Below the pieces are notes generated by a model. It did no database searches. It saw nothing but the letters and a program-made list of their open reading frames with translations, and was not told where the DNA came from. From positions 1-42,114 of the IMG/VR virus record IMGVR_UViG_2561511241_000009: a DNA stretch of 42,114 nt; one strand, written 5' to 3'. Source of the stretch: a virus. Taxonomy: Duplodnaviria; Heunggongvirae; Uroviricota; Caudoviricetes. Below, one piece after another: positions 394-35,835 of this stretch (positions are counted from its first letter, which is position 1; each line of letters begins with the position of its first letter). The translations under genes and the position numbers were made by a program.

Positions 394-2180
394 GGAAAAC
401 GAGCCTGACATACCGAGGTTGGAGACAGATTAATAGCAAAACGGTGAGCGGGCATCTTCGCTCTGTTTTCAGCCATAAATTGCAGCGTATGCTCAATGAC
501 CCACATGTCGATACTCGACGATAAACCAAATTCGTGCGCGACCGGCAAGAAGCTATCGGGGCTGATCAGTTCATCATTCTCACCTTTCATGCGCAGAAGA
601 ATTTCATGGTAAACATCACCACGCATACCGGTAATCGGCTGGGCCATCAGGAAAAAATGGTTGTGTTCCAGCGCCTGCTGTAGTCGATTCATCATCGCGA
701 CTTTATCTTTCAATTCGCGTTGCAAATACATTGCCCCGCGACGCTGCATATTTTCCGGGGCGTTGGTCACGATGGAAAGTTCGGCGACCGTATTTAGCTC
801 TCCCAGCAGCAGGTAGATATGATTCACTGGCGAGCGCACATAGCAGTAACTGACGCCAATCTGCGGTTGCATCGGCATGCCATCCCAAAAGAAACGAAAT
901 TGCTTGAGATGGCTATCCAGTGCGGTAATGCGCTCCTGGTGCGATTCTGTATTCAGTCGCAGCGCGAGATCGTTACCCGAAAGCTGATAAACATCTTCAC
1001 CCGGTTCCAGCAAGGGTGACAGCCAGTGAGAAAGTTTTTGCTTGTATTGAATCCGCAGCATGATGCCATAGTTCTTAACCAGCATTTCCATGCCAGGGAT
1101 GCGTAAATAACAAAGCGCAGACCAGGGGGCATCACGCAACGCGCGATTCAGGGCGCGAACATTTGGCAGATGAACCACCGGGTCCACATACGCAAGCCGC
1201 TGAATGCGTCTGACTACCGCTCTCTGACGGGTTGCCAGTACAGCCATATAATTGACAATAAAAGAGAATACCAGATAACTGGAGGAGGTTATGGTCAGCT
1301 GCGTGGTATAGCCAGGATAAATGGGAATGTAATTTTGATAGCTGTGGATGCTGATCATCAACACGACCGCCCAGAGCAGCGAAATCAGCTTATAACCATA
1401 GCGCATCGCTCCCCACATCATCAGGGGCAGCAATAATGACAAGGTATAATTGGTGCTAAAAATTGTGCTTTTTTCATTTAACGGCATGCATAACAGCAAC
1501 AATAAAGCACCTAATGCCAGTAGCCAGAGCGCGAACTCTTTTTTGGTGACTTTGGCATCAACCTGCTGTTTTAATTGCGAATAATAGCTACGTAAATAAA
1601 ATGGATTTCGCACTACCCGAATGATGAAGTAGCACAGCGGGACACCGATCAGATTACCCACCAGTAAGGCCTGATAATTGATTAAAGTCCCGAGGTTAAA
1701 AGGCATGACACCGACCAGATTTTCTCTGCTCGCCAGTAATCCTACAAATGCAGCAAACTGGAAAAGTATCAGAAACAGCGTTGCAGGAAACACAATCTGC
1801 CAGAATATACGCTGGGAAATTAAACGGGTATCACCATGTGAAACGTTGTTACGCCGGGGAGTAAAGACCCTGTAACCGCCCCAACAGAGAATGATAATGA
1901 TAATAAAATTAGCCGTTAATGATAGCGTTTCGTAAAAACCCAGCTCTGCATATTTGCGGACAAAAATCCCTAAGGCGATCCCTGGCAATGCCGCCCAGCT
2001 GAAAAACATCATCATGCTGATCATCAGTGCCAGAGGCAGATAAAAGAGAAAAACCTCACCGGAAGAAATATGCGCGAAAGTATTAATGTGGGCGAAAATG
2101 GGCAAGATTAAAGAAGGCAGGAACAGCGGAAGCCCCCACCATTTATCACGTATTTTTATATAAGTTGCATTCAGTTTCAT
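394..2180 (-). pseudogene. pdeF: c-di-GMP phosphodiesterase PdeF/YfgF-like gene (MASE1, degenerate GGDEF, EAL), 3' end truncated by IS1
   Basis: 602-aa ORF 372-2180: multi-TM N-terminus, central domain lacking GGDEF, EAL domain start (YHEILLRM...); reading frame runs into IS1 and stops at 372; synteny with yfgG/yfgH/yfgI. Confidence 0.7.
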
Positions 2181-2531
2181 AGATGCTCAGCAGAATCCCC
2201 CACATCCTGAAGGAGGTGTATTCAGACAGGCATCCCACCTGACTTCGAATGATGATTATTCATCACTATAGAGAGCATTGATTCTAAGTGTCATATGAAA
2301 GTACCAATTGATATATATCAAACAAAATAACCCTGATTAATGAATTATTACGTTTATCATGTTAATTCATCATTATTACATCATCATTGTAAATAATTAA
2401 ATTAACTTCCATAACATTAAAATATGTATCCACTGACGCTTTTTTACATAACGAAGAATTGACCATTTTGTCCTGTTGTGCCTTAATGTAAGTACCGTCC
2501 ACAGCGTGGGACATACTTCAAGGAACCTTTT

Positions 2532-2723
2532 GTGAGTCAGGCAACCAGTATGCGAAAACGACACCGATTTAACAGTCGCATGACCCGTATCGTACTGCTC
2601 ATCAGCTTTATCTTCTTCTTTGGCCGTTTTATCTACTCGTCCGTCGGTGCCTGGCAGCACCATCAGAGCAAAAAAGAAGCTCAGCAATCCACACTCTCCG
2701 TCGAATCACCGGTACAACGTTAG
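2532..2723 (+). CDS. yfgG: small membrane protein YfgG-like (63 aa)
   Basis: 63-aa ORF MSQATSMRKRHRF... with one hydrophobic helix; position next to pdeF. Confidence 0.75.
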   Translation: MSQATSMRKRHRFNSRMTRIVLLISFIFFFGRFIYSSVGAWQHHQSKKEAQQSTLSVESPVQR

Positions 2724-3033
2724 CGGTTACCTTCTCCACTTTCACAGAACATAACGGCACTTCGCTGTCGGATGCTTTTGCTGTTTGGGATTATCAAAGC
2801 GGCAGATATTCTTTCATCTTAAATTTTACGTCTTTATCCTGACTGATGTTTATCCTGTTTGGCTGCGAAATAAATATAAAATTAATATATATGTTGTAAT
2901 GATATATTTTTATAAATTATTCCCTGCGTGAATTTTAATAAATTTAATCTATCCCTTTATACGCAATACATTTACTTTCCTCTTTTGATGATCTTAAATG
3001 TCTTATTTTTCGTAATGTGTATAACAAGGAATA

Positions 3034-4310: not shown

Positions 4311-4799
4311 CTATTTTTGCTTCTTCAATGAGTCGTATTGCTGCTCGCAGAATTCCCCTGCAATCCGATACTTTTCAGCCTCAACTGCTGTTGCGTTGTA
4401 AACTCGGTTGCTTTCTTCAAGCATGTCGGCGAGCACACCAATGACCTTGCTGGCTGGCGTGCCAGAGGGGAAAGATCCGGTATAGTGTTCGGCGAGTCGC
4501 TTGGTATTGTCAAGCTCGGCGCGCATGCTGTCAGCAACGGTATTAGCATACTCAGCATCAGCAAGCGCCGCATCGATACGGGATTGTGCTTCACGTTCAA
4601 TTTGTGTTTTCTCCTGCTCACGCTGTGACCTGAACTTATCATCAGCCTGTTTCTGATCTTCCTTCGCCTGCGCATACCCGGCGTCGTACTGACGACTGCC
4701 GTGTGCATTCCAGGCTACAACTCCTGATATGACCAGAACAGCGAGCATCGCCATGATAACCAACTGTTTCCAGTATGCTTTTGCGAATGCCCAGATCAT
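4311..4799 (-). CDS. i-spanin Rz-like
   Basis: N-terminal TM helix then coiled-coil periplasmic region; start overlaps endolysin stop (ATGA); contains embedded lipoprotein ORF. Confidence 0.75.
4325..4573 (-). CDS. o-spanin Rz1-like lipoprotein embedded in Rz (+1 frame)
   Basis: Internal Met starting [17 protein letters not shown] (lipobox LTAC), Pro-rich; fully nested inside Rz. Confidence 0.7.
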   Translation of the reverse strand: MRRLLMLSMLIPLLTACAPSLTIPSDSPNTIPDLSPLARQPARSLVCSPTCLKKATEFTTQQQLRLKSIGLQGNSASSNTTH

Positions 4800-5425
4800 A
4801 CCACCAGCACCTTACTGGCAGTGATGTACCGCGCGCGCCGGTCGTCGATGCCGTTCCGGCCACCATTGATAATCAGAGTTACACGTGCAATATCGCCGGT
4901 ATACTTCATGCATCCTTTGCTGGCGAAGAACCACGCCGCGCTACGAGCCGCGTATTCGTCCTGCGCCAGCAGTTCAGGATTCTCCAGCAGGTCAACTTTC
5001 AGACCGTTTCCGCAGTCACGATAGTTATTCAAACCGGTAATCTGGATAAGCCCGCGCCCACGGTAATTCCAGCCATCGCCTGGAGCATTGTTACCCATGC
5101 GTTTGCTGTACACCAGATTTGCGATCGCGCGCTGGCGATCGAGTGGCAATGGTGGCTCACCAGCACGGCGGCCCAGTGCGTTAGCCTGTCCCTGGGTGAG
5201 ACGCCCAGCCCGAACGAAGTTAGCCAGTCCGGTGACGCTGTAGTTGAAATTTTCCTGCAACCGATTGAAGCCCCCAGACTCATGCCCGACCTGAGCAATA
5301 AACATTGCCTGATCTTCGGGTTTGCTGATACCAAACTCTTTCATCGCAGAAGTTATATGCGAGAACCAGCGTGCGGCCAGCGCCTCGCTAATACCAGCAG
5401 CTCGCTGGAATTGTTTAATCTCCAT
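4796..5425 (-). CDS. endolysin, glycoside hydrolase family 19 (chitinase-like)
   Basis: Motifs [12 protein letters not shown] and [16 protein letters not shown] typical of GH19 lysozymes; sits between holin-like genes and Rz. Confidence 0.85.
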
Positions 5426-5723
5426 GTTTAGACCTCGTTATTTTGAAAATCTGAACGACGTTACCGCGCGTTTTAACAACCGCAGCAAGCATGACAGCGT
5501 TGATAATGACCTCAGATAAATCCACAGCCATTGGCGTGCGTAGCCATATTGCATAGACAGCACGAACTGGAATACTGGCCGCAGCAACAATCAGAAAATA
5601 AGCAAGCCAGCCTCCCCATCTTCGGTGTTGAGAACCGTTACGCCGGAATGTGACAACACGAATTGCTATGCCAGTACAAATAACTGCATTGGTGATAAGC
5701 AAAAAAAGCTCATGCGTTACCAT
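5415..5723 (-). CDS. lysis-cassette membrane protein (holin/antiholin-like, 3 predicted TM)
   Basis: 102 aa, three hydrophobic helices, basic C-terminus; overlaps both neighbours. Confidence 0.5.
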
Positions 5724-6114
5724 CGTCTTTTCTCCCCGGAATTAACTCTCGTGGATTATCGGAGCGGTGATAAAGCCATATACCAATTCGCACGGCGACA
5801 ATTGACGACACAAATGCACCAGCAGAGAAGACGATCCCTTTCTCGAAAGAGTCCTGCGTGATGGTAGGGATCAGGCTGGCTACACCGATAAGGATGGATG
5901 CTGTAGGTTTGTAAAAGAGAAGGCCGCAGAGGAAACTGAGCATAGACAGGAGAACCCGGCGATGAATGGGATACTCGATGGCTGAGGTAACAAAAATTAC
6001 CGCCCCAGCCAAAGCTCCCAAAGCCACCTCTGGAGGAACCCCTGCTATCACCGCAGCAAGAGAACCCGCACTAAGCCACTGATTTAAAGACTCACTGGTT
6101 AGCTGAACTGACAT
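5710..6114 (-). CDS. putative holin (4 predicted TM)
   Basis: Hydrophobic helices and charged C-tail; first gene of cassette; ATG at 6114 with GGTGG RBS (track ORF extends to GTG at 6123). Confidence 0.6.
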   Translation of the reverse strand: MSVQLTSESLNQWLSAGSLAAVIAGVPPEVALGALAGAVIFVTSAIEYPIHRRVLLSMLSFLCGLLFYKPTASILIGVASLIPTITQDSFEKGIVFSAGAFVSSIVAVRIGIWLYHRSDNPRELIPGRKDDGNA

Positions 6115-6359
6115 AAAAACCACCGTTTAATGTGCATAACGAACCCCTTAGTTGGTGATCACATTATACACAATAAACCATATGTGGTTTAAAAACATTA
6201 GGCAGATCTTAACGATATTACCATATATGTAGTTCTGTTAAGGTGAACTACAATCATAACTAAGTAATTAATTGATAGTTCACAATATTTTTGAATGCAC
6301 AGGAAGCGTATGTCATTGATTATTAGTGACATGAAAATTAGCCATAATAAAGCTATACT

Positions 6360-8387
6360 TTATGCTGTCGCATTCCACTCTCCTGTATTCATCACCCACG
6401 CTGATACCACCCTTGAATATACCAATGTGGCTGTGGTCATTTTGATCTGAGATGTATTTGCTCCTGTGACATTTACTGGAACCCCTGCAATAGATAGCGA
6501 TGATATATTTGAACCCCTGAGAATAAATCCAATCTTCTGACCATCATATGGCGTCCCTGTAAATGATATGTTTTCTCCTGATATAACATTACGTCTATAC
6601 CAAGAGAATCCCATATTAATATCAACAGTATTATCTGATAACTGAAGAACACCATTTCTGTTAACTTTTGCCGACGAAAGAACACCAAGATCTGCTGATG
6701 TAATTCCCTGGTCTGATTTCCATGTGTTGATATTAACTACAATGTTGGTCACTGTGGCATCAGAACCTCCATCAATTTTAAAGAATCCACCTGCTCTTGA
6801 TCCATAGACAGGCTCATCAATCAAAGCATTTAGGGTGAGATTGCTTGCACTATAGGCGTTTGCTGGCAGACCAGCAGTTGTTGATGAGTGAGTACAACGG
6901 TGAAATAAAGCACCTACAGAACTCGACATTCTTACGTCTGACGAGCTATTGTTTTCAAAGTACATACCGTAGACTTTTGTACCTTGCGCTTGGTCAAGGA
7001 ACCCATATTTACTGCAATTTTGACTAAATCCACCTACAAATACTACGGCTTCAGTCGGGAATGTATTCACATAGTCCCACGTCGTCTCACCATTAAGACC
7101 ATGCCTAACAATTATTCCGTATTGCGGCATATCAATTTCTGGAGTGCCTGAATAACCATTAAAACCAGTAACTGTTATAGCATTTGCGCCGTTTCTTAAA
7201 AGAAGTCTAATTGATCCAGTGCCACCACCGATAACTTCACAGCCATCTACTTTTAGCCCGTAACATAGAGTGCCAATTTCAATTCCAACGTTGTTGGCGG
7301 CAGTTCCCATATTGACCCACATCATGTCAAGATGTCCATGGTTTCTGAACTTTATCCCTACAAATCCTCTACACCCTGTCTTCCCGCTAATGTCAATTCT
7401 CACGTTGTGTAACTTAACATTCCTTACTCCATTCCCTCCTGAAATTGTCGGATCGCAGGTCATTACTGTCATGTTATTGTTTGCAGGATATAATGTTGCT
7501 CCAGGATCCCACCAAATTTCCGTGTTTGGATATATCGCCCATGCTGTGCTGGTTGTATAAGTTCCTGATGAAACGTATATCTGACCAGCTGATGAAAGGA
7601 TTGACTGTATCTGAGTAGTATTCATAGATGGGTAAATAACCTTCGACGGCTTAACGCTACCTTTATAAGGGTAATCTTCCCAAATGCTGTTCCCGCCCCA
7701 CGAACTACCAACATGCTTATCGAACCCAGGCTGCGCGATCTGTAATAATACGTCAGATGCTGAACCGGATGGTGGCAGTACAGGATAAGGGTTACCTGCA
7801 CTGTCAAACGCAACTATTTTATTTGCCCTAGTCGCTGCGTCAGGAAGTTGAGGGATTTGCTCAGGCACTCGTAGGGTGCGGCTGTAATTATTGCTTGCCA
7901 GCGAGTCGACATAATTCTTTGTAGCCGCGTCCTGTTGGCGTATGGGATCGCGAAGATTTCTAATATAGTTGTTCAAAGCATCATAATAGTTTGCCACGAA
8001 TGATGGCTTGCGAAGCGCTAGGCTAAACCAACTTCTAACCTGCTGTATCAGCATCGTCAGTTTATCGAATGCGTCTTCATGCACCTCAGCGAAGAACTTA
8101 CCCTGGTTGCGCAGATCGGTATCCTGCGTAACCGGTAGCTCTCTTGATATAGAAATCTGATAACCGTTAACCAACGCCTTCGACAGAATTACATTGCCGC
8201 CGTTATACCCTCCCGCACCAGTGACTATGTAATCAGTATCAAGAATCAGCTCTGTGATGTTCTCGTTCAGGTCAACAACCTGCACTACTAAATCAGATTT
8301 CTGGAAAATCCTGAAGGTATAAGGGAATGTCGTTGTAACACCGTTACCGGTGTATTCGTTGTGGTCAACTTCGGTTGAGACCGTCAT
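6360..8387 (-). CDS. tailspike / tail fibre receptor-binding protein with T7 gp17-like N-terminal anchor domain
   Basis: N-terminus YTGNGVTTTFPYTF...VVQVVD...ISISRELPVTQDTDLRN parallels T7 tail-fibre N-domain pattern; long Gly/Asn/Thr-rich body; visibly AT-richer than flanks. Confidence 0.7.
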   Translation of the reverse strand: MTVSTEVDHNEYTGNGVTTTFPYTFRIFQKSDLVVQVVDLNENITELILDTDYIVTGAGGYNGGNVILSKALVNGYQISISRELPVTQDTDLRNQGKFFAEVHEDAFDKLTMLIQQVRSWFSLALRKPSFVANYYDALNNYIRNLRDPIRQQDAATKNYVDSLASNNYSRTLRVPEQIPQLPDAATRANKIVAFDSAGNPYPVLPPSGSASDVLLQIAQPGFDKHVGSSWGGNSIWEDYPYKGSVKPSKVIYPSMNTTQIQSILSSAGQIYVSSGTYTTSTAWAIYPNTEIWWDPGATLYPANNNMTVMTCDPTISGGNGVRNVKLHNVRIDISGKTGCRGFVGIKFRNHGHLDMMWVNMGTAANNVGIEIGTLCYGLKVDGCEVIGGGTGSIRLLLRNGANAITVTGFNGYSGTPEIDMPQYGIIVRHGLNGETTWDYVNTFPTEAVVFVGGFSQNCSKYGFLDQAQGTKVYGMYFENNSSSDVRMSSSVGALFHRCTHSSTTAGLPANAYSASNLTLNALIDEPVYGSRAGGFFKIDGGSDATVTNIVVNINTWKSDQGITSADLGVLSSAKVNRNGVLQLSDNTVDINMGFSWYRRNVISGENISFTGTPYDGQKIGFILRGSNISSLSIAGVPVNVTGANTSQIKMTTATLVYSRVVSAWVMNTGEWNATA

Positions 8388-8491
8388 GTTAAATCTCCAG
8401 ATAGTCGCAGCACCCGTTGCGCCGCATATCCGGTTATTCTATTACCTGAAAAACCATATATGGATAGACAACCCATAAATACGAACAGATA

Positions 8492-8506
8492 TTACCTTTC
8501 AGGTGA
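8492..8506. promoter_or_regulatory. operator-like palindrome TTACCtttcaGGTgA
   Basis: Member of the recurring (A/T)TTACC-N5-GGTAA(T/A) family; one mismatch; ~40 bp upstream of LexA box. Confidence 0.55.
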
Positions 8507-8543
8507 TTCGCAAAACGTGCTGGATAGCAAATAAATTATTTGA

Positions 8544-8563
8544 TACTGTATATTTATACAGTT
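8544..8563. promoter_or_regulatory. LexA (SOS) box
   Basis: TACTGTATATTTATACAGTT = CTGT-N8-ACAG, near-identical to the E. coli consensus TACTGTATATATATACAGTA; 20 bp upstream of ATG 8583. Confidence 0.8.
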
Positions 8564-8582
8564 ATTGCATGGAGAAGATAAG

Positions 8583-8840
8583 ATGCAGCAGTATCACTAT
8601 CCACTGGAAGACGGATTTACCGAAAGGATTCACACGCCGGGAGGCGTTAGATCACTGGTGGAGGGATCGCACTTGATGAAATTACTCCGGGAGCTCGATA
8701 AGGATGGATTTAATGTCGATGGCCCACTTGCCGAACTGACTGCACTGATTAACTACGTCACCAGCTCACAGATGTCTATGCGGGATCTGCAAACACATCT
8801 CGACTATTGTGCCGAACAATTACGAAAACAAACCAGATAA
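8583..8840 (+). CDS. small antirepressor-like protein (stand-alone antirepressor C-terminal domain)
   Basis: GGAG RBS; 85 aa; strongly similar to the C-terminal 65 aa of the BRO-N protein at 9156-9866 (IHTPGGVRSLVEGSHLMKLL...RDLQTH vs IHSPSGVLGLTENSLLMNLL...RDIQTH). Confidence 0.6.
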   Translation: MQQYHYPLEDGFTERIHTPGGVRSLVEGSHLMKLLRELDKDGFNVDGPLAELTALINYVTSSQMSMRDLQTHLDYCAEQLRKQTR

Positions 8841-8871
8841 GGTTTGCAATTACCAAGTGGAGTGCTTATAT

Positions 8872-8886
8872 TTACCTTTGCGGTAA
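8872..8886. promoter_or_regulatory. operator-like palindrome TTACCtttgcGGTAA
   Basis: Perfect match to the recurring palindrome, in the 300-bp non-coding gap upstream of the BRO-N gene. Confidence 0.55.
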
Positions 8887-8976
8887 ATTTACATCGCACT
8901 CCTCTTGTGCCATAGTAATCGGGCACTGGAAAAATCCAGTGCCGGGATTGGCGTCCCGAGTTACTAAGTGGCGCAT

Positions 8977-10154: not shown

Positions 10155-10595
10155 TTGAAGTTTAACATTAGAATATCTAATAGTTTTCTACATGGGGAAA
10201 GCAACACCCCTTTCGCTGTAGACGGACCTTTCCTTACTGATGATGAAATAAAAATCATACAAAGTTTTTTAGAGGATGTTGCCAATGGAAGGGCGCTTGT
10301 TGGAAAAAACAAGCCCTCGTGGGTTGATGATAACCATGATAAAATTCCCGGCTCAGACAATTATGAGCAAGAGAATTATTGGCATTATCATTGTGGGCCA
10401 ACATGGTATCCAAACACATTTAAGAATTATACCATTAACTTAAATTTCAACCCTGGCGGAATGCATTCTAATGAATGCATTCATTATGCAAAAAATGATA
10501 ATGAAATTGTCATTGTTGGATTTTCAAGAGAACACATACCTTTCCTTTCATCAGATGGAAATAACAATCCGCTTTTTAATGATGAAGAAGAATAA
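10155..10595 (+). CDS. hypothetical protein, AT-rich cargo gene (TTG start proposed, 146 aa)
   Basis: AGGAG then 6 nt then TTG at 10155; no in-frame ATG before residue ~130; strong AT-rich codon bias (many N/K/I/F); acidic C-tail; no recognisable family. Confidence 0.45.
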   Translation: MKFNIRISNSFLHGESNTPFAVDGPFLTDDEIKIIQSFLEDVANGRALVGKNKPSWVDDNHDKIPGSDNYEQENYWHYHCGPTWYPNTFKNYTINLNFNPGGMHSNECIHYAKNDNEIVIVGFSREHIPFLSSDGNNNPLFNDEEE

Positions 10596-10889: not shown

Positions 10890-11303
10890 TTATAAAGATG
10901 ACTGATATTTTACAACTCTGTTCATGGCATCTTTTTTCACCGAGCTGATATCAGTTCTTATTTTGGCTTCGTCATTACTGCTTATCATGCTATTAATTTT
11001 TTGCACTGACATGCCGTTTCTTTCAGCCATTGCACATACAGCAGCATCGTATGAAGAACTCGCTGCGATGGATATCACCTTGTTACACTCAAACACAGCA
11101 CCTTCAGCAATATCAGATGCCGATGAGGCTGGCTTGGTATAAGTCTTGACGTAGTGATCAATACAACTATCCTTCGCCGTCTTGGCAAGAGAAAAATCCA
11201 TTTTAACTTTGTCGCAATATGCCTTATCAACACCGTCATAAACATCATAGGATGTCGAGCAAGCGGATATCAAAAATACCGATAACAGCAATAATTCCTT
11301 CAT
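10890..11303 (-). CDS. phage lipoprotein (cargo; superinfection-exclusion candidate)
   Basis: Signal peptide plus lipobox (LISAC); AT-rich; last gene of the leftward structural operon. Confidence 0.6.
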   Translation of the reverse strand: MKELLLLSVFLISACSTSYDVYDGVDKAYCDKVKMDFSLAKTAKDSCIDHYVKTYTKPASSASDIAEGAVFECNKVISIAASSSYDAAVCAMAERNGMSVQKINSMISSNDEAKIRTDISSVKKDAMNRVVKYQSSL

Positions 11304-27718: not shown

Positions 27719-27795
27719 GTGGCATTAGCTCAGTCGGACAGAGCAACCGCCTTCTAAGCGGTTGGTCGCAGGTTCGAATCCTGCATGCCACGCCA
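27719..27795 (+). tRNA. tRNA-Arg (anticodon UCU)
   Basis: Manual fold: acceptor GTGGCAT/ATGCCAC, D-stem GCTC/GAGC, anticodon stem ACCGC/GCGGT with loop CTTCTAA, T-arm GCAGG-TTCGAAT-CCTGC, discriminator G, encoded CCA. Confidence 0.9.
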
Positions 27796-28369: not shown

Positions 28370-28459
28370 CACCGTGACATATCACAAACAGCCAGCCTAT
28401 GAGCTGGCTTTGTTTTATCCTCATCAGAGGATATCAACGACATTATCCCCTCAAGCGGA

Positions 28460-29935
28460 TTAAGCATAGGGATCGTAATCTGTGATGGCCTTGCCTTGCT
28501 GGTTCTGCTGCCCGGGAAGTCGCAGGCGCTTTGACACCGGGAAAGCAAACGTCAGCAGTAGCGCATCGCCTTTACCAGGCGAACGCCCAAGCCGCTCCTT
28601 GATATCTTCCTTCGGTTCGATAACGATTTTACCGTCCACTCGAACTTTGTACTCTGCCGCAGACAGGTCGTCCGCTGTTTCCTGGTCATCCAGCATGCCG
28701 CCCAGCCTCAGCCATGTCTTGCATGAGTTGAACATCTCCCCACGCTTGTTGAGCATCTGCGGGTCAGTAGACGCGCCACCGAACGGAACAAGTTGCCATG
28801 TACGACCCCATCCGTCACCGATTGATTTCAGACCGGTTCCGTAACCGAAGTCGATGAACACTGCGTCAGCCTGGTACTGGTCTTCAAAGTCAGCGATACG
28901 CTTCGCCATTATCAGATCGTCAGTGGTCTTGTTGCCAGTCCACAGCACCTTACTGTGCAGCCCCTGCCGCAGGTATATCACAGCGTCATCAACGCCGGAG
29001 TATGCCGGGTCAACGCCGATTATCACCGGAGCGTGTGCCACCTGCGCAGCAGTTACCACCCGTTTCATTGCCTCGTCAGTAAGACCGGTAGGGATAAACT
29101 GCAATTCAGATGCATCAGGAAATATGCCGCGCACACGGATTTTAACGAAGTCGCTGTCTTCCCCGTAGTCATCAACCCATTTCTGTAATTGCTGCTTGTT
29201 AGTACCTTCCACCGTCCGGCTGTCAATCTGTGCAGTTTTCCAGCGGTGTTTATATTTGCGGAAACATTCGCGGAAACGCCCGGTGTTACGCGTCGGGTTC
29301 CCGAACGCCACCCAGATGATTTCGGTGTCTTCGTCCGTAAGCGCACCCTCGGCAACTTCCCACACCAGATCCGCAATGTTCGACGCTTCATCAAACACCA
29401 CGATGATGCGTTTGCGCTCGTTGTGTAGTCCCGCGAACGCCTCAGTGTTGTGCTCAGACCAGGGGATTGCGTCAGCGCGCCACCGCTTGTCGTGCCCAGG
29501 GTCATTGCTGTACATCGCGGTAGCGGTACAGGTAAACCAGTCTTTCGTGATAGCAAGATTTGACCACTTGATAATTTCCGGCCAGGTCTTCGTTCGTAGC
29601 TGGTTGTCGGTGTTGGCGGTCACCACCACCTTGCAGTCCTCGCAGGTCGACATGCCCCAGTTAATCAGCATTGAGATGAAAGCTGACTTGCCGATGCCGT
29701 GGCCGGATGCGCGGGCCAGCATCAACGGCTGGTGACGCGTCGCCGGGTTCTGCAGGTGATCGCGTATCTCGCGGAATGCGTCTGCCTGCCACTTACGCGG
29801 ACCGGTGGCGTGCGCCAGCTCTGTGCCTTCCTCGCCCCACGGAAACGCATACAGCGCATAGCCCAGCGGGTCATACGTGAACGAGGCGATATCCTCGACG
29901 AGTTGCTCTTCCGGCGACATGGCTGCGGCTGTCAT
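28460..29935 (-). CDS. terminase large subunit
   Basis: Walker A-like ASGHGIGKS; C-terminal nuclease-like region; 491 aa; ATGA overlap with small subunit. Confidence 0.85.
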   Translation of the reverse strand: MTAAAMSPEEQLVEDIASFTYDPLGYALYAFPWGEEGTELAHATGPRKWQADAFREIRDHLQNPATRHQPLMLARASGHGIGKSAFISMLINWGMSTCEDCKVVVTANTDNQLRTKTWPEIIKWSNLAITKDWFTCTATAMYSNDPGHDKRWRADAIPWSEHNTEAFAGLHNERKRIIVVFDEASNIADLVWEVAEGALTDEDTEIIWVAFGNPTRNTGRFRECFRKYKHRWKTAQIDSRTVEGTNKQQLQKWVDDYGEDSDFVKIRVRGIFPDASELQFIPTGLTDEAMKRVVTAAQVAHAPVIIGVDPAYSGVDDAVIYLRQGLHSKVLWTGNKTTDDLIMAKRIADFEDQYQADAVFIDFGYGTGLKSIGDGWGRTWQLVPFGGASTDPQMLNKRGEMFNSCKTWLRLGGMLDDQETADDLSAAEYKVRVDGKIVIEPKEDIKERLGRSPGKGDALLLTFAFPVSKRLRLPGQQNQQGKAITDYDPYA

Positions 29936-30528
29936 TCTTCACCACCAGCCTGCTCTATGACGCGGCGCCGGGCGGCGGCCATGCGGTCGGCGATGGTGAC
30001 CGTGCCGGAAACCTCCAGGCGCTCTTTGAACGCGTTAACGTCGACGTGCTTACCAATCAGTTCGAGGTTCTTCATCTTGTCAGGCCATTTAATTTTTTTG
30101 AGGATTGTCTCTATCGAATCCTCGTTCATGTTCATGATGGTCGATGACAGATCAAAGCCACTAAGCGTAGTGCGCCAGATTTTCGGCCACTCGCGGATTG
30201 GCTTAAGACTCCCATCGTCGTTGAGGATATCAATCACGTCCATCTGGTCGATCTCCACCAGGCGCATGAGAACGTAATCAGCACTGACGCGCATTCGTTT
30301 GTTGCGCTCCTCCATCAGCTCGGCAATCCGTTTTTGAATGCGTTCATCGCGCATCATGACACTGGCTTTAACTGCCGCTGTATTTGGGGAGAATCCTGCG
30401 TTAATCGCTGCCTGAGTCTGGTTTTCAGGCGTTTTGATGTATGACTGGCAATAAGCCTCCTGCATTGCTGTTAGTGGCTTAAATTGCGTTGATTTGCGTT
30501 TATAGGTTTTAGGTTCAGCAGGCATCAT
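29932..30528 (-). CDS. terminase small subunit
   Basis: Directly upstream of and overlapping large subunit; GGTGG RBS before Met at 30528 (track ORF extends to 30606). Confidence 0.65.
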   Translation of the reverse strand: MMPAEPKTYKRKSTQFKPLTAMQEAYCQSYIKTPENQTQAAINAGFSPNTAAVKASVMMRDERIQKRIAELMEERNKRMRVSADYVLMRLVEIDQMDVIDILNDDGSLKPIREWPKIWRTTLSGFDLSSTIMNMNEDSIETILKKIKWPDKMKNLELIGKHVDVNAFKERLEVSGTVTIADRMAAARRRVIEQAGGEE

Positions 30529-30646
30529 AACCACCGTGGTAATAGTTACCGTTGTGGTAATAGTACCATGCAAAATAAAGCCGCCATAGTTGGCGGCAGT
30601 ATTCAAAACCCATCAAATTCATCATGCATAATCTACTCGTGACATG

Positions 30647-30985
30647 TCACACTATTAATTTCGTTTCATGCCAGCCTTTAGTCACCCAGCATTGCGAGTC
30701 ACCATTACACGGGCATGAATTCACAGGAACTCTCTCGCCGCACTTACCGCAACGTTTTCTGCTGATCGATTTTATACGCCCGTGCACGCGTGCATCATCC
30801 TGGCGGATCAGTAACGCTATATACTCACCAAATTCGTAAGGCGCACGCCCGGGGCGACGCGTGGCACAGTTACGCTCCAGCATTTCAATTTCCTGAGCAT
30901 CAAGCACAATCTCCAGCTTACGCACACCAGATGCAGCTTGTCTGGCTCTCTGAGCGGCTTTGCGCTCTGCTGCTGATTTAGCCAT
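30647..30985 (-). CDS. hypothetical protein with basic N-terminus and Cys-rich C-terminus (possible regulator)
   Basis: CxxC...CPC cluster suggests a zinc ribbon; no His, so not HNH. Confidence 0.4.
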   Translation of the reverse strand: MAKSAAERKAAQRARQAASGVRKLEIVLDAQEIEMLERNCATRRPGRAPYEFGEYIALLIRQDDARVHGRIKSISRKRCGKCGERVPVNSCPCNGDSQCWVTKGWHETKLIV

Positions 30986-31331
30986 TCTGATTTTCCTGCA
31001 TCATGAGAAATACAATCATGGCGGCTCGGAGTGGATTATTCGCATGAAAGCAAATGTTCTCGGCATTAAAAACAGCTGACCACTCACCGCGAGATTGGTG
31101 GCAGGTTAGACTGATTTTATTATCAACAATAATAGGCCATGCATCCGATGGATTATTGCAGTAGTCAGGTAAAGGGTTTAATGGCTCAAAAGTTGTATCA
31201 GCATTTCCGTAATACCATTTGTTGGTGTTATTCCCTGATGTTTCCGGTTTACATGCCCAAAGGCCTTTAAAAATTATGTCTCCTACCATTCTGTTAATTT
31301 CAAAATCACTTAACTGTGAATAGTCCATCAT
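30978..31331 (-). CDS. DUF2591-like phage protein
   Basis: Starts MMDYSQLSDFEINRMVG; ATGA overlap with upstream gene supports start at 31331 (track ORF over-extended to 31475). Confidence 0.45.
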   Translation of the reverse strand: MMDYSQLSDFEINRMVGDIIFKGLWACKPETSGNNTNKWYYGNADTTFEPLNPLPDYCNNPSDAWPIIVDNKISLTCHQSRGEWSAVFNAENICFHANNPLRAAMIVFLMMQENQNG

Positions 31332-31870
31332 TTCGCCTCCTGCGGCGGTTCTGGCAGCGGCATCCAGTACAAGGCGTTCCCTAACCACGATAAAGTGCCG
31401 TCGCTCAACTCCACGTATTCCCCTTGTACCTGTCCTGCCATATACTCGCCGTGCTTTGAATAAATTAAAATCCAATCATCTTGAGGGGGCATTCGCTCAC
31501 TACAGCTTATCCAACCATCCGGAGTTACCGGATGGGGTCCAGCGAACTCGGGCATGTCAGGACCTTTTCTGATAGCTTTAGCCAGCTCCAGCGGGTCATC
31601 GTAAAGCCAGTCGCCAGTTTGTGGGTGATTTGCTTCTGCAAGCTGCGCAGCCCATTCAAGACCATCTTTTTGACCTTGGAGATAATCAAGCGGCAACTCT
31701 TCATGATTACTTGCAGGTTCTGCACTATCAGCTTCGCGCCGCTTCTGTAGCTCTGCTGCCATCGCTCTCACGACTTCAACTGGTGCCCTTGCAGCAAACT
31801 CTATGTTGGTGATCAGCTCATTAAGATATTGCTCGCTGGGATACTGTTTCTTATTGGTAATAGTGGTCAT
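31328..31870 (-). CDS. DUF551-like phage protein
   Basis: C-terminal DGW..W..LP.PP signature typical of DUF551. Confidence 0.45.
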   Translation of the reverse strand: MTTITNKKQYPSEQYLNELITNIEFAARAPVEVVRAMAAELQKRREADSAEPASNHEELPLDYLQGQKDGLEWAAQLAEANHPQTGDWLYDDPLELAKAIRKGPDMPEFAGPHPVTPDGWISCSERMPPQDDWILIYSKHGEYMAGQVQGEYVELSDGTLSWLGNALYWMPLPEPPQEAK

Positions 31871-32382
31871 GCCGCGTTTCCTTCTTTCTTATTAACAATT
31901 ACACCGTCATATATTTCATTAAGGTGCCCTCTCAACTCCATGCGCCTTAATGCAGATAACATGTAATCGCATTCAACCTGCTTATTTCCAGTAAATGGCT
32001 TATCGTCAGGATTACCCCAACAGCAATTACCATTGGGCCACCCATGTACTTTCCGTACTCTTCCGTTAATAACGTGAAGTAATCCCCAGCCGGGAGGTAA
32101 ATCCTCAACTGAAATAATTCCCGGCTCACTAATAAAGAATCGCCAGTCGCCCATGCCAAGTGAGGGATTTTTACGGAAACGCTTTTTTCTATCTGCCAAC
32201 AAGTCAGCACGAGAACACTTCGCCTCTATCAGGCATGATGCTGAATTTCTGAATCCCATAGCATCTGGCTGTTCTCCGGTACTGGTTACAGCAACAAAGC
32301 GGTCATGAAAGCAAACCTTGAACCCGTTGCGCTTAAGGAACTTGTACGCAATCTGACAGAGTTCGCGGTGTGTTAACGCCAT
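31867..32382 (-). CDS. PD-(D/E)xK nuclease-fold-like hypothetical protein
   Basis: Candidate catalytic pattern PDAMGF...CLIEAKCS (D...ExK). Confidence 0.35.
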   Translation of the reverse strand: MALTHRELCQIAYKFLKRNGFKVCFHDRFVAVTSTGEQPDAMGFRNSASCLIEAKCSRADLLADRKKRFRKNPSLGMGDWRFFISEPGIISVEDLPPGWGLLHVINGRVRKVHGWPNGNCCWGNPDDKPFTGNKQVECDYMLSALRRMELRGHLNEIYDGVIVNKKEGNAA

Positions 32383-32386
32383 ATCA

Positions 32387-33478
32387 TCACTCTCCTTTGA
32401 TGCGAATGCCTGCGGCGCGGATTGCAGCGATGACTTCAGAAACTTTGTATGCCATTACCGTTTGGTAATCATCGTGAAAATCTGTTCGATGAAGCATGCT
32501 GCTACGTTCCGGGAGCGATATTTCCCGAGCATCCAGTTCCTTAACGTGTTCCTCCAGTTCGTAGACCCTGCATTGTTCTCTATCATCAATCAGATATAAC
32601 CCAAGACATTCGCTTTCTACCCAACCGCCAAAATCATGATCGTAACGCTCACATGAAAACTCACCGTCACCGTCCTTTGTTGGAATGGTGTAACTATCTA
32701 ATGGGCCACCATATGTCGGCACATTTCCCAATGTTGGATGCTCAATCCACATGAAAAATGCACGTCCGGTTATTGGGCAAATATCTGGCCGCCATTGGTT
32801 ACGAACAGCCTTGGTTTCGGATAATTCTTCAGCGTGTTGTTTTACTTCCTCAAGCTCAACGCGCAGCTTCCCTACCGTAAGCGCAATATCCTCGTTCTCC
32901 TGGTCACGGCGTTTGATGTATTGCTGGTTTCTTTCCCGTTCATCCAGCAGTGCCAGCACGGTTTCTGGTCCGGTCAGAAAAGACTTATTGATAAATCCGT
33001 GATTGAACGCAGCAGCAAGACGGCTTGCGGTGTAGTTAATCCCCTCGTTGCGTGCCTCCGCACGTATTTCAGCCAGGAAAGCGTCGGTGGCTGTGGTTTC
33101 GATATCGTTAATTTCAGGAAGAATCTCTTCCCATGTAGCGATATCGCCATTCAAATGCCACCCGGCAATTCCACTGGAGTTATCCGCAACACTCCGAACG
33201 GCTTCAATAGTTTCATGCATTGCCGCATTCTCCGCCGCCAGCGCCGAAAACTTCTCGTGTGCCAACTTAACAGCCGAATCAGCCTGCTTAATTGACTCAA
33301 TCGCTTTCTGCTGGCCTTCGGCCAGCGCATTAGCACGCGCCAGTTGCACTTCCAGTTGCGTTGCCAAATCGCTGAGCAGCTTTGCCACACTGCGCATATC
33401 AACGGCACCACATTCAGCTTTCAGTTCCGAAGCCATCTCATGCCCGGCGGCAACTAACCCTTTGATATTACTTTCCAT
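32387..33478 (-). CDS. Ead/Ea22-like protein
   Basis: Coiled-coil N-half, acidic Trp/Cys-containing C-half; position in early region. Confidence 0.45.
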   Translation of the reverse strand: MESNIKGLVAAGHEMASELKAECGAVDMRSVAKLLSDLATQLEVQLARANALAEGQQKAIESIKQADSAVKLAHEKFSALAAENAAMHETIEAVRSVADNSSGIAGWHLNGDIATWEEILPEINDIETTATDAFLAEIRAEARNEGINYTASRLAAAFNHGFINKSFLTGPETVLALLDERERNQQYIKRRDQENEDIALTVGKLRVELEEVKQHAEELSETKAVRNQWRPDICPITGRAFFMWIEHPTLGNVPTYGGPLDSYTIPTKDGDGEFSCERYDHDFGGWVESECLGLYLIDDREQCRVYELEEHVKELDAREISLPERSSMLHRTDFHDDYQTVMAYKVSEVIAAIRAAGIRIKGE

Positions 33479-33539
33479 CTTTACCCTCGCTTATCCACAT
33501 AACTTATTGATTACATTGATAACTAAAAAGATCGTCGAT

Positions 33540-33887
33540 TCAGAATTCTTCGATGTTCCAGCCACCACCTGCTTTCTTTGGTTTAACCGTTACCCCGATG
33601 ATTCGGAACGGATACTGATCTGCGGCTACTTTGGTTTTCACCCTGGCGTCGTCGGTCCAGAATCCCCCTTTCACTTCGTGCAGTTCCATCTCTCCGGTGG
33701 CGAGCATCACAGCAAAATCGGGCGTATAGAACGTGTTGTCGGCTAACCGCAGCTTGATACCCTCGAATCGATACCAGGCGATTTCCCCTGCGCGTTTACG
33801 CTGCTCAAGGTGCTGGCAATACGCAGATTCTGTTTTGTTCATCTGGCCTGTTTTGAGTCGACCAAGAGCCTGTATCTGTTTTCTCAT
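33540..33887 (-). CDS. PD-(D/E)xK nuclease-fold protein (DUF1064/VRR-NUC-like)
   Basis: Motif YTPDFAV...MELHEVKGG (D...ExK). Confidence 0.45.
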   Translation of the reverse strand: MRKQIQALGRLKTGQMNKTESAYCQHLEQRKRAGEIAWYRFEGIKLRLADNTFYTPDFAVMLATGEMELHEVKGGFWTDDARVKTKVAADQYPFRIIGVTVKPKKAGGGWNIEEF

Positions 33888-33890
33888 GAT

Positions 33891-33905
33891 TTACCCTTGA
33901 GGTAA
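33891..33905. promoter_or_regulatory. operator-like palindrome TTACCcttgaGGTAA
   Basis: Perfect palindrome overlapping the RBS of the 33887 gene. Confidence 0.5.
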
Positions 33906-33953
33906 TTAAAAACCACATAAGACACAAAATCAATAGAGTTTAGAATATTTTAT

Positions 33954-33968
33954 TACCCAATAGGTAAT
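33954..33968. promoter_or_regulatory. operator-like palindrome TTACCcaataGGTAA
   Basis: Perfect palindrome 63 bp from the previous site. Confidence 0.5.
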
Positions 33969-34004
33969 TATTGAGACGTAAAAAAATGCGCTATCGCGCT
34001 GGTA

Positions 34005-34787
34005 TTACTTGATAAATCCTGCCGCCTTTCCCCGCCTGTATTCCTCCATCAGCCACTGCGCCGGTGTTATTCCCCCCAGGGTGGCGGCGTTAGGCATGCA
34101 CCCGAAACTTCGCCCTGGTGGATGGTAAACGTCTCTCCCTGTGTCCGGAGGCGTACTCATGGGTTCTGGCTTTGCCTGTATGCTGATCACCGGATCGGGT
34201 ATCTGCTGTCCGGAAGCCACCTTTTTCGCCCAATCATCGAGCAGCCTGCGCGCGTGTTTCTCAACCTCAATCTCGCTAAGCTGGCGCTGATACATTGCGC
34301 GGCGGGTATCACATACAACCCAGTACATAACCGGATGTCGCCACGGGAATCTTTCTGGACCACCAGGATATAAACTTTTTTCCTTGCTGTACCGATGAAA
34401 CTCCGCCATCACATCGTCAATGGTGACGCCAAGAACCATCTTGCTGTCTTTGCACCACTTGATGAATTGCCCAGGCGACGGCCAGAACGGAGATTCACTG
34501 GCGCGGGCGTGGCGCATACCAGCGTTAACCTGTTCCATTGTAGTGATCCCATTCTCCAGAAACGCAAGCATCCATTGTTTTCGAAATTCGTTTAGCTTTC
34601 CCTGTTCGCTGATAGCAGCGATGCTGCCTGGAAATGCAGCCTGCAACTGGACAAACATTTCGTTGAAAATTCTTGCAACCTGCTCCTTCTTTGCCCTTTC
34701 ATCGTCAGCAGAAGCAACCACCGTCGAGTGGTCATGCCCACCACGAAAGCGATAGTACTCATTAAGAAGTTCTGGAGTTGATTTCAT
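34005..34787 (-). CDS. lambda P-like replication protein (helicase loader)
   Basis: Segment FRKQWMLAFLENGITTMEQVNAGMRHAR...PSPGQFIKWC matches recalled lambda P core; GAGG RBS before Met at 34787. Confidence 0.65.
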   Translation of the reverse strand: MKSTPELLNEYYRFRGGHDHSTVVASADDERAKKEQVARIFNEMFVQLQAAFPGSIAAISEQGKLNEFRKQWMLAFLENGITTMEQVNAGMRHARASESPFWPSPGQFIKWCKDSKMVLGVTIDDVMAEFHRYSKEKSLYPGGPERFPWRHPVMYWVVCDTRRAMYQRQLSEIEVEKHARRLLDDWAKKVASGQQIPDPVISIQAKPEPMSTPPDTGRDVYHPPGRSFGCMPNAATLGGITPAQWLMEEYRRGKAAGFIK

Positions 34788-35619
34788 CCCACACCTCATC
34801 TATCCAGTCAGTGTTATGCCAGTCAAGGCTCTTTCTGACTTCACCTGATTTCTGTCTACAGAACTGGATGCGCCTTGCCAGCTTCTGCTCCCACTGCGCC
34901 TGATGGTATGCCTTACCCTCAGCCATCCAGTAAATTCTGAACTCTGCAAGTTCCTGTGCCGTTGGCAGACTGTCCAGGTAGATCCCCTGCAATGAGCTTT
35001 TCCGAAGAAAGTCATCTGATGGCTGCCATTGTTCATGCATGACAAATTTGCCTAATTGCCCTGGCCCACCAGGAGGAACAAAGTTATTCATCACGGCGTT
35101 GTTTGCGCCGGGGTCATGAGGCACAGAATCCCCGTTTTTTGTCCTGCTCTCCCTCTCTTGGTTAAATGACTGGTTATATGACTGGTTCTGGATCCCGTTT
35201 TTGGGATCATTCAACATCCCGTTTTTGGGATCATTCAACATCCCGTTTTTGGGATCATTCAACATCCCGTTTTTGGGTATATTCCCGTTTTCGGTAACAT
35301 TACCGTTTTCGGGTTCATTGCCCCCCTCCCGGTTGCCTTTAATGTTCCCGTTTTTGGTTATATTAAGAGAGAAAACCCGCACTCTTTTTGTCGCTCCCTT
35401 TCTCTCTCCGGTATCTGAAATAAGCCCCATTTTCATGAGCGATATAAGCCCGGCCTGCACGGTTTTTTTATTCAGACAAGTGTCTTTAACGAGACGTTCT
35501 ATGCTGGGGTAGCAGAGGTTATATTCATCGGCTCTGTCAGCCATCGAGAGCAGTATGAGCTTTAATGACGAGCTACCTGGATCTGTCTCCCAGGCCCAAT
35601 CTGTTGCATGTCTGCTCAT
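34762..35619 (-). CDS. lambda O-like replication initiator with internal iterons
   Basis: N-terminal wHTH-like domain, repeat-encoded linker (PKNGMLND x3), C-terminal domain; directly upstream of P-like gene. Confidence 0.6.
   Translation of the reverse strand: MSRHATDWAWETDPGSSSLKLILLSMADRADEYNLCYPSIERLVKDTCLNKKTVQAGLISLMKMGLISDTGERKGATKRVRVFSLNITKNGNIKGNREGGNEPENGNVTENGNIPKNGMLNDPKNGMLNDPKNGMLNDPKNGIQNQSYNQSFNQERESRTKNGDSVPHDPGANNAVMNNFVPPGGPGQLGKFVMHEQWQPSDDFLRKSSLQGIYLDSLPTAQELAEFRIYWMAEGKAYHQAQWEQKLARRIQFCRQKSGEVRKSLDWHNTDWIDEVWDEINSRTS
35192..35320. repeat. iteron array (candidate replication origin) inside the O-like gene
   Basis: Three perfect tandem 24-bp units ATCCCGTTTTTGGGATCATTCAAC (35192-35263) plus degenerate copies; each unit contains the palindrome ATCCC-N6-GGGAT. 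Confidence 0.65.
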
Positions 35620-35634
35620 GATTAATCTCCGCTA

Positions 35635-35835
35635 TCAGCTTGAATGTTGTGGGGAGGAATTAATCATGATCTGCTTAATCTCTGCCCTGATGCGACGGTT
35701 TGATTCCATGGTGCACTCAACACAGTGTCCGTTGTAAACCCAGCGTTCACTGTCATGTCCGTGCTTACATGGTTTTCCGGTGTAGTAGCGTTTAAGTCCG
35801 CGCTTTGCGGCATCAATACGTGTAATGATTTCCAT
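35635..35835 (-). CDS. small zinc-ribbon protein (hypothetical regulator)
   Basis: CKHGH...CVEC Cys/His cluster; AGGG RBS before Met at 35835. Confidence 0.4.
   Translation of the reverse strand: MEIITRIDAAKRGLKRYYTGKPCKHGHDSERWVYNGHCVECTMESNRRIRAEIKQIMINSSPQHSS

Follow-up and report, generated by a model that had tools for sequence, protein, structure and literature searches.

The 42,114-nucleotide stretch of viral DNA analyzed here at its full length (the window; IMG/VR record IMGVR_UViG_2561511241_000009) encodes a tailspike that an initial annotation had described as a compositionally foreign receptor-binding module. We conclude with good confidence that this gene is the tailspike of an epsilon15/phiV10-like (Uetakevirus) prophage that is inserted between yfgI and guaA in an O149-type Escherichia coli, that it joins a conserved N-terminal anchor to a beta-helix module acquired by recombination, and that its likeliest receptor is the O-antigen of E. 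coli O149 and Shigella boydii type 1. The swapping of the module is well supported, and an activity as an O149-specific depolymerase is plausible.

An exchangeable module behind a conserved anchor

Residues ~226-675 of the tailspike are an exchangeable receptor-binding module gained by recombination. A search with residues 231-675 finds this module at 91-96% amino-acid identity in the tailspikes of P22-like phages and Enterobacter hormaechei prophages (proteins P0002-P0008; contigs L008, L010, L013 and L014), where it follows either the P22 head-binding domain PF09008 (P0003, P0004) or the Ackermannviridae-type tailspike protein (TSP) N-terminus PF18668 (P0005-P0008). The same module, 62% identical over residues 250-675, forms part of TSP1 in the Agtreviruses MK-13, Ag3 and ChubbyThor (Ackermannviridae, S. 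boydii hosts), although TSP1 of the MK-13 type differs from the present protein in its PF18668 N-terminus, in belonging to a branched multi-spike complex of a lytic myovirus, and in its G+C content (GC; 46% versus 41% here). One C-terminal module is found behind three different N-terminal domain types.

Comparison of DNA sequences places both ends of the exchanged segment. Similarity to the Uetakeviruses TL-2011b, phiV10 and phiv142-3 resumes at window positions 7747, 7906 and 8041, respectively, so that Uetakevirus similarity ends at residue 214, and similarity to the P22-like contig L008 and the siphovirus-type prophage L010 starts at residue 226/227 and continues until two bases beyond the stop codon. 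The upstream junction therefore lies within residues 214-226 (sequence LLQIAQPGFDKHV), adjoining a GSSWGG motif, and the other breakpoint lies at the stop codon. A longer motif, PGGDKxVGSSWGG, is common to proteins of all three anchor types. Because the shared C-terminal regions recur in independent NCBI, ENA and Logan assemblies, assembly chimeras are an unlikely source of these patterns. The host of L010 is not E. coli; its yedD-amyA insertion site, shared with L014, indicates that it is probably an Enterobacter.

The anchor is conserved across the genus. Its amino-acid identity is 78% to phiV10 (residues 1-227) and 72% to epsilon15 (residues 1-254), a range of 72-78% that also includes PAS61, and its DNA identity to Uetakeviruses is 85-88%. 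This region is homologous to the first ~205 residues of the phiV10 tailspike and of epsilon15 gp20, and Pas et al. 2023 (PMC10408124) defines the anchor as the first 205 residues of the phiV10 receptor-binding protein (RBP) and describes it as conserved within the genus. Nineteen PHROG families share only the N-terminal anchor with this tailspike. Part of the gene is matched in 502 of 5,426 complete E. coli genomes, in each of the rows listed only by the region encoding the N-terminal 160-214 residues, and the whole gene is matched in only six. The combination of a conserved N-terminus with a divergent C-terminus that the initial annotation had proposed is thus borne out, as is its suggestion of horizontal swapping, which the three anchors, the two breakpoints and a low GC that travels with the module show directly.

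That annotation had also called the anchor T7 gp17-like, and this description holds only in a restricted sense. Direct comparison gives no support: against Pfam PF03906 the tailspike scores 13.9 bits, below the gathering cut-off of 25.2, with only residues 135-165 aligned, and BLASTP of the anchor against T7 gp17 finds no match. Intermediates and profiles do connect the two, in that six anchor homologues (55-63% identity) score 36-39 bits on PF03906 over model positions 7-152 of 157, and hhalign aligns the anchor profile with T7 gp17 residues 11-171 over 146 colinear columns (E = 0.022). By these comparisons the anchor is related to the gp17 N-terminal domain as a remote superfamily member only. 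The proteins also part ways beyond this domain, with gp17 continuing as a coiled-coil fibre with a gp37-like tip and the present protein as a beta-helix spike. A solved relative of the anchor is the N-terminus of the Dpo31/Dpo36 tailspike, which matches residues 1-156 (E = 7.5e-25) in a PDB sequence search that found relatives for the anchor and neck only and none for the module. In a Pfam search of the whole protein nothing scored above threshold; a Glucodextran_B match (12.8 bits) is noise.

The module is itself a mosaic. Over residues 246-420 its DNA is 99.8% identical to L008, with one difference in 525 nucleotides, while nucleotide identity falls to 60-76% over residues 465-675 and to 60-80% overall in the part of the module outside residues 249-459. 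Comparison of positions 7011-7643 with 6363-7000 thus places a recombination breakpoint within the beta-helix, close to residue 460. Two further alleles, L013 and L014, keep 93-98% identity from residue 234 to residue 594 but not beyond it. The C-terminal half of the module exists as two alleles that differ by 8 GC points, and these two alleles account for the 103 sites that are A/T here and G/C in L008 (45 sites show the reverse). Residues 571-675 vary most, with 74-88% amino-acid identity to relatives whose beta-helix is 96-100% identical and 67.6% nucleotide identity to L008 and L010. Codon differences from the L008 allele comprise 116 synonymous and 35 non-synonymous changes, which indicates purifying selection on the gene and hence retained function.

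In four other backbones (L008, L010, L013 and L014) gtrC and gtrB come after the module, and gtrA is likewise called in two of these, L008 and L014. The module and gtrC-gtrB-gtrA form a single 4.1-kb block, 93.6% identical between L008 (6364-10473) and L010 (6400-10509), and more distant module homologues carry other O-antigen modifiers downstream. It thus looks as if the module moves together with genes whose products modify its own receptor. The prophage in the window differs from the P22-like and Enterobacter examples in this respect, since neither a gtr gene nor any other O-antigen modifier gene lies next to its tailspike.

Base composition of the module

The initial annotation had called the gene markedly AT-richer than the flanking lysis and structural genes. 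This holds for the C-terminal two thirds and for the spacer that follows; taken whole, the gene departs only moderately from its surroundings. Its GC is 43.2%, compared with 49.3% for the prophage (4311 to the window end) and 48.9% for the whole window, and against the 29 prophage genes of at least 300 nucleotides (GC 49.8 ± 4.0, third-position GC (GC3) 49.4 ± 6.8) it has z ~-1.6 on both GC and GC3. Residues 1-230 have GC 46.8% and GC3 48%, and residues 231-675 have GC 41.5% and GC3 33%; with its GC3 of ~33%, the receptor-binding part reaches z ~-2.4 against the same genes. The drop falls at third and first codon positions, and second-position GC is higher in the C-terminal part, so the deficit does not stem from amino-acid content.

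At the scale of the prophage, sliding 1,275-bp intervals average 49.2% GC (standard deviation 3.1), and only 1.5% of them go down to the level of the C-terminal part. All ten of the lowest start at 5911-6411 and overlap the module and downstream spacer; codons ~231-675 together with the 236-bp spacer are the lowest-GC 1.3-kb stretch of the prophage. Within the module, local GC reaches 27-31% at residues 579-609. GC is higher in the flanking genes (Rz 51.8%, endolysin 55.2%, holins 45.0% and 50.4%, BRO-N 51.9%, structural genes 49-54%), and only two short accessory genes, 10155-10595 (plus strand, 34.9%) and 10890-11303 (minus strand, 39.4%), fall below the tailspike. Both lack a Pfam match, occupy a variable accessory region that separates the BRO-N gene from the virion genes, and were probably acquired as ‘moron’ genes. 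The window as a whole reaches its lowest GC (37.5-40%, 1501-3000) in chromosomal sequence outside the prophage, in the 3' portion of pdeF and around yfgG.

Low GC could in principle reflect a constraint or mutational regime at the locus instead of foreign origin, given that AT-richness is typical of receptor modules and seroconversion genes. Equally AT-rich receptor modules (GC 36-42%, GC3 26-32%) occur in phiV10, TL-2011b and phiv142-3, although their sequences are unrelated to this one; GC is 30-31% in the O-antigen modification genes beside those of phiV10 and TL-2011b, and 28.5% in the O149 wzx-wzy segment. We nonetheless judge this explanation unlikely, if the least unlikely of those we weigh. 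The allele found here keeps a GC of 41-43% and a GC3 of 31-35% in a P22-like phage and an Enterobacter hormaechei prophage, and the second allele of the C-terminal half, at the same gene position, has GC 49% and GC3 47%. Composition therefore follows the allele and not the locus, and horizontal exchange is in any case established independently of composition. Low GC belongs to the module itself and moves with it between phage backbones. The description ‘compositionally foreign’ is thus right relative to the backbone, yet such a composition is normal for the receptor cassette in the Uetakeviruses checked: AT-richness marks a shared pool of exchangeable modules and is nothing peculiar to this prophage.

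Fold, predicted activity and probable receptor

An AlphaFold2 model built from a 28-sequence alignment has a predicted local-distance difference test score (pLDDT) above 90 over most of residues 246-675, with a right-handed parallel beta-helix as the predicted body and confidently predicted strands at residues 573-668. The initial annotation had suspected a polysaccharide-specific depolymerase and had named a GC indistinguishable from that of the prophage, or a non-enzymatic fibre, as the contrary outcomes; the GC differs as set out above, and the predicted fold is a beta-helix, not a fibre. Among viral models, the top structural match is TSP1 of MK-13, Ag3 and ChubbyThor. The tailspikes of P22, Sf6, HK620 and Det7, and TSP2/TSP3 of CBA120, likewise place a beta-helix body after an N-terminal particle-binding domain, at sequence identities of only 9-12% that do not allow catalytic residues to be mapped.

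Depolymerase activity is suggested by the fold and by the family. A beta-helix that binds glycan as an adhesin, with no catalysis, is an alternative that we consider improbable: E384, E478 and D484, along with several arginines and aromatic residues, do not vary among the 28 members, whose identity goes down to 30%, purifying selection on the beta-helix is very strong, and the characterized podovirus tailspikes that act on O-antigen (P22, Sf6 and HK620) are endoglycosidases. As to mechanism, a hydrolase would be more likely than a lyase, because the O149 gene cluster has no uronic-acid pathway and encodes rhamnose synthesis, two glycosyltransferases and a pyruvyl transferase.

Literature searches yielded no serotypes for the carrier strains, and these were instead taken from O-antigen loci read directly in the genomes that carry the tailspike. 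In the pig isolate E. coli rl0044, the closest complete genome to the window (99.8% identity over 10 kb), this locus comprises rmlBDAC, wzx, a pyruvyl transferase gene, wzy, GT2 and DUF1972, with wzx and wzy annotated ‘O149 family’. The rl0044 wzx-wzy segment is present in 11 of the 5,426 complete E. coli genomes, including five of the six tailspike carriers (Fisher p = 7e-14, for genomes that are not independent). According to PMC10408124, Uetake-, Lederberg- and Kutterviruses trade receptor-binding domains with one another, and RBP subtypes correspond to the O serogroup of the host; in that sense the present subtype follows its serogroup, with five of six carriers being O149 in a small and possibly clonal set of genomes. 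The O149 repeat consists of rhamnose and N-acetylglucosamine (GlcNAc), with 4,6-pyruvylated GlcNAc. O149 Wzy is 100% identical to a Shigella boydii Wzy cluster, the O149 and S. boydii 1 antigens have been described as identical (PMC6156305), and MK-13 lyses only S. boydii type 1 (PMC6853846).

The link extends beyond E. coli and Shigella. The next Wzy homologues are found in Enterobacter hormaechei (58%), Cronobacter turicensis 564 (56%) and Vibrio cholerae (41%), and loci from these taxa (L015, L017, L027/L028 and L030/L031) share the O149 gene order (rmlBDAC or rmlBADC, wzx, pyruvyl transferase, wzy, GT2, DUF1972). Module relatives come from the same taxa, and in C. turicensis 564 a module homologue and an O149-type locus occur in one record. 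Among the Enterobacter and Vibrio assemblies listed, those with a module homologue and those with an O149-type wzy do not overlap, C. turicensis 564 alone having both. This taxonomic match between module family and O149-type loci is, in our view, the strongest of the indirect arguments that the family reads O149-type O-antigens. The E. coli O149/S. boydii type 1 O-antigen is most likely the receptor. Phage E212 of K88 enterotoxigenic E. coli (ETEC), considered as a lead for the P22-type variant of the tailspike, was dropped since its tailspike is reported to be HK620-like.

Several observations weigh against the assignment of the gene as an O149-reading, beta-helix tailspike. On the structural side, residues 1-245 are modelled poorly (pLDDT <50), the module has no Pfam domain, and the nearest solved structures are only 9-14% identical, so that no catalytic site can be transferred and E384, E478 and D484 are active-site candidates by conservation alone. 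On the side of the receptor, the O149 association comprises six genomes, of which four are pig isolates (ETEC by strain name, or unlabelled) and may be clonally related. MK-13 has several tailspikes, any of which may read the S. boydii 1 antigen, and the 62% identity of its TSP1 falls below the 75% subtype threshold of PMC10408124. The closest alleles (93-98% nucleotide identity) occur in Enterobacter hormaechei and in metagenomic phages. Finally, an O138 cluster, its wzx frameshifted, is present in the carrier ETEC4085. In this genome (L004, NZ_CP122634.1 1915001-1965000) protein accessions equal those of rl0044 from dgcE to wcaJ and differ from wzxC onward, with the switch point adjoining a copy of IS1397. 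This arrangement suggests that ETEC4085 is an O149-lineage lysogen whose O-antigen cluster was replaced by recombination.

Two readings would separate the tailspike from the O149 antigen. If the association were purely vertical, descending from one ancestral pig ETEC lysogen, the tailspike would say nothing about its receptor. Flanks were examined in two carriers, ETEC1749 and rl0044, and these do have the prophage at one and the same chromosomal site, beside yfgI; four carriers are pig isolates, from Europe and Japan. Carrier backbones nevertheless differ (87-100% coverage, 97.8-99.8% identity) around a tailspike that is 100% identical in five, one carrier comes from a chicken, and the cross-genus match between module and O149-type locus is independent of E. 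coli clonality; we accordingly give vertical descent little credence. Least probable of all is that the module binds another glycan co-inherited with the pig O149 ETEC clone, such as a capsular K antigen, in which case the link to O149 would be indirect: pig O149 ETEC are often typed O149:K91, four of the five O149 carriers are pig isolates in which association cannot separate O149 from other glycans of the lineage, and ETEC4085 retains the tailspike despite its O138 cluster and frameshifted wzx, but module relatives occur in S. boydii type 1 phages and in prophages of taxa with O149-type loci (in Cronobacter in the same genome), the chicken isolate GPEC1258 is also O149, and the gtrABC-type genes that follow the module in four other backbones belong to a class known to modify O-antigens.

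We therefore favor the O149/S. boydii type 1 O-antigen as the receptor, and propose the following model. Residues 1-214 would fix the spike to the phage tail, and the spike would assemble as a trimer, by analogy with P22, Sf6, HK620 and epsilon15. The O149 polysaccharide would be bound along the beta-helix and most probably cleaved hydrolytically, which would open a path for the virion down to the outer membrane. A broader proposal, whose chances we regard as evenly balanced, is that the module represents a previously uncharacterized beta-helix depolymerase family specific for the pyruvylated O149/S. boydii 1 O-antigen. Such a family would track its locus across E. coli, Shigella, Enterobacter, Cronobacter and possibly Vibrio, would occur in at least four phage backbones, usually with a gtr cassette and in this prophage without seroconversion genes, and would have recombined inside the beta-helix near residue 460.

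Prophage context and relation to known phages

The tailspike protein is RefSeq WP_000218927.1, identical in E. coli rl0044, ETEC1749 and others; the exact protein is encoded on 318 contigs, and its PHROG matches are phrog_1640 ‘tail protein’ and phrog_20656. The left end of the window contains the E. coli chromosomal genes ppx, pdeF, yfgG, yfgH and yfgI, and the prophage, epsilon15/phiV10-like, runs from ~4.3 kb (4311) to the window end. Followed along the minus strand, it comprises an Rz-like DUF2514 gene, a GH19 endolysin gene and two holin genes, the tailspike gene, the virion genes and an integrase gene (40864-42114). The tailspike gene thus has the virion genes on one side and the holin/endolysin/Rz cassette on the other, in a ~39-kb epsilon15-like genome, and both of its flanks are syntenic with phiV10, TL-2011b, phiv142-3 and HEMP4 at 84-94% nucleotide identity. 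Coordinates are collected in Table 1.

Table 1. Features of the tailspike gene and its surroundings (window coordinates)
Feature	Coordinates	Strand	Remarks
Tailspike gene	6360..8387	minus	ATG start, 675 amino acids, stop codon 6360-6362; from the open reading frame (ORF) list
N-terminal anchor, residues 1-214	7746..8387	minus	Particle-binding domain conserved across Uetakeviruses; amino-acid and DNA similarity; GC 46.8% over residues 1-230
Remote homologue of T7 gp17 N-terminal domain (PF03906), residues ~8-165	7893..8366	minus	Profile comparisons
Junction region, residues 215-245, including QPGFDKHVGSSWGG	7653..7745	minus	Recombination boundary between residues 214 and 226
Right-handed parallel beta-helix, residues ~246-570	6678..7652	minus	Predicted glycan-binding, probably glycan-cleaving body
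Sub-segment, residues ~249-459	7011..7643	minus	DNA essentially identical to P22-like contig L008; sliding-window identity 98-100%
C-terminal beta-rich domain, residues ~571-675	6363..6677	minus	Lowest-GC part of gene, most variable sub-module
AT-rich spacer	6124..6359		236 bp, 30.5% GC; between tailspike stop codon and holin gene
Lysis cassette	4311..6123	minus	Context outside module; Pfam; 87-89% nucleotide identity to phiV10, TL-2011b and phiv142-3
Rz-like DUF2514 gene	4311-4799	minus	Pfam match
GH19 endolysin gene	4796-5425	minus	Pfam match
Two holin genes	5415-5723, 5710-6123	minus	Pfam matches

Within the Rz-like gene, an out-of-frame minus-strand ORF (4325-4708) contains a lipoprotein box, ‘LLTAC’, and fits an Rz1-like outer-membrane spanin of the kind annotated in phiV10 (PhiV10p30a). 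A tRNA-Arg gene (anticodon TCT) lies inside the prophage at 27719-27795 on the plus strand, between the terminase and portal regions. The rl0044 prophage, located between yfgI and guaA, differs from the window: around ~28400-35700, a Ser/Thr phosphatase, ArdA and one hypothetical gene of rl0044 (L011) are unmatched in the window, and its terminase and DnaT-like genes show only partial matches of 95-98% identity. The backbones of these prophages are thus mosaic around a tailspike that is 100% conserved.

Similarity to the Uetakevirus backbone (phiV10, TL-2011b, phiv142-3) stops within the AT-rich spacer, at 6187-6230. The same position holds an O-antigen modification gene in other Uetakeviruses, oac in phiV10 and a 369-residue gene in TL-2011b, whereas here the spacer is all that separates tailspike and holin genes. 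Promoter and terminator scans of 5900-8900 score no better than shuffled sequence, and we therefore assign no regulatory role to the spacer.

Among known systems, phiV10 gp25, epsilon15 gp20 and the TL-2011b tailspike are the closest in design, with an anchor 68-78% identical to this one, the same gene position and the same pairing of an anchor with an exchangeable module; their receptor parts, past residues ~215-300, are unrelated to the present tailspike. This design principle has already been described for Uetakeviruses and Lederbergviruses by Pas et al. 2023 (PMC10408124), and the present work adds a putative O149 subtype to it. In that paper O149 is not among the 14 RBP subtypes, and both O149 and the accession of this protein are absent from its supplements as available; our literature search found no paper characterizing an O149-specific tailspike.

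The tailspike is a clear but ordinary case of host-range domain swapping in phages, and it leaves current understanding unchanged. Its value is chiefly practical, in the targeting of pig ETEC O149 and S. boydii 1, and in part that of a teaching case of modularity, in which breakpoints are placed to within a few codons, one module stands behind three anchors, and base composition travels with the module. O149 is a leading serogroup of ETEC in post-weaning diarrhoea of pigs. A defined O149-specific module could be used for detection, or be grafted onto phages or tailocins, against pig ETEC O149 and S. boydii 1, as the phiV10 tailspike reportedly has already been used for O157.

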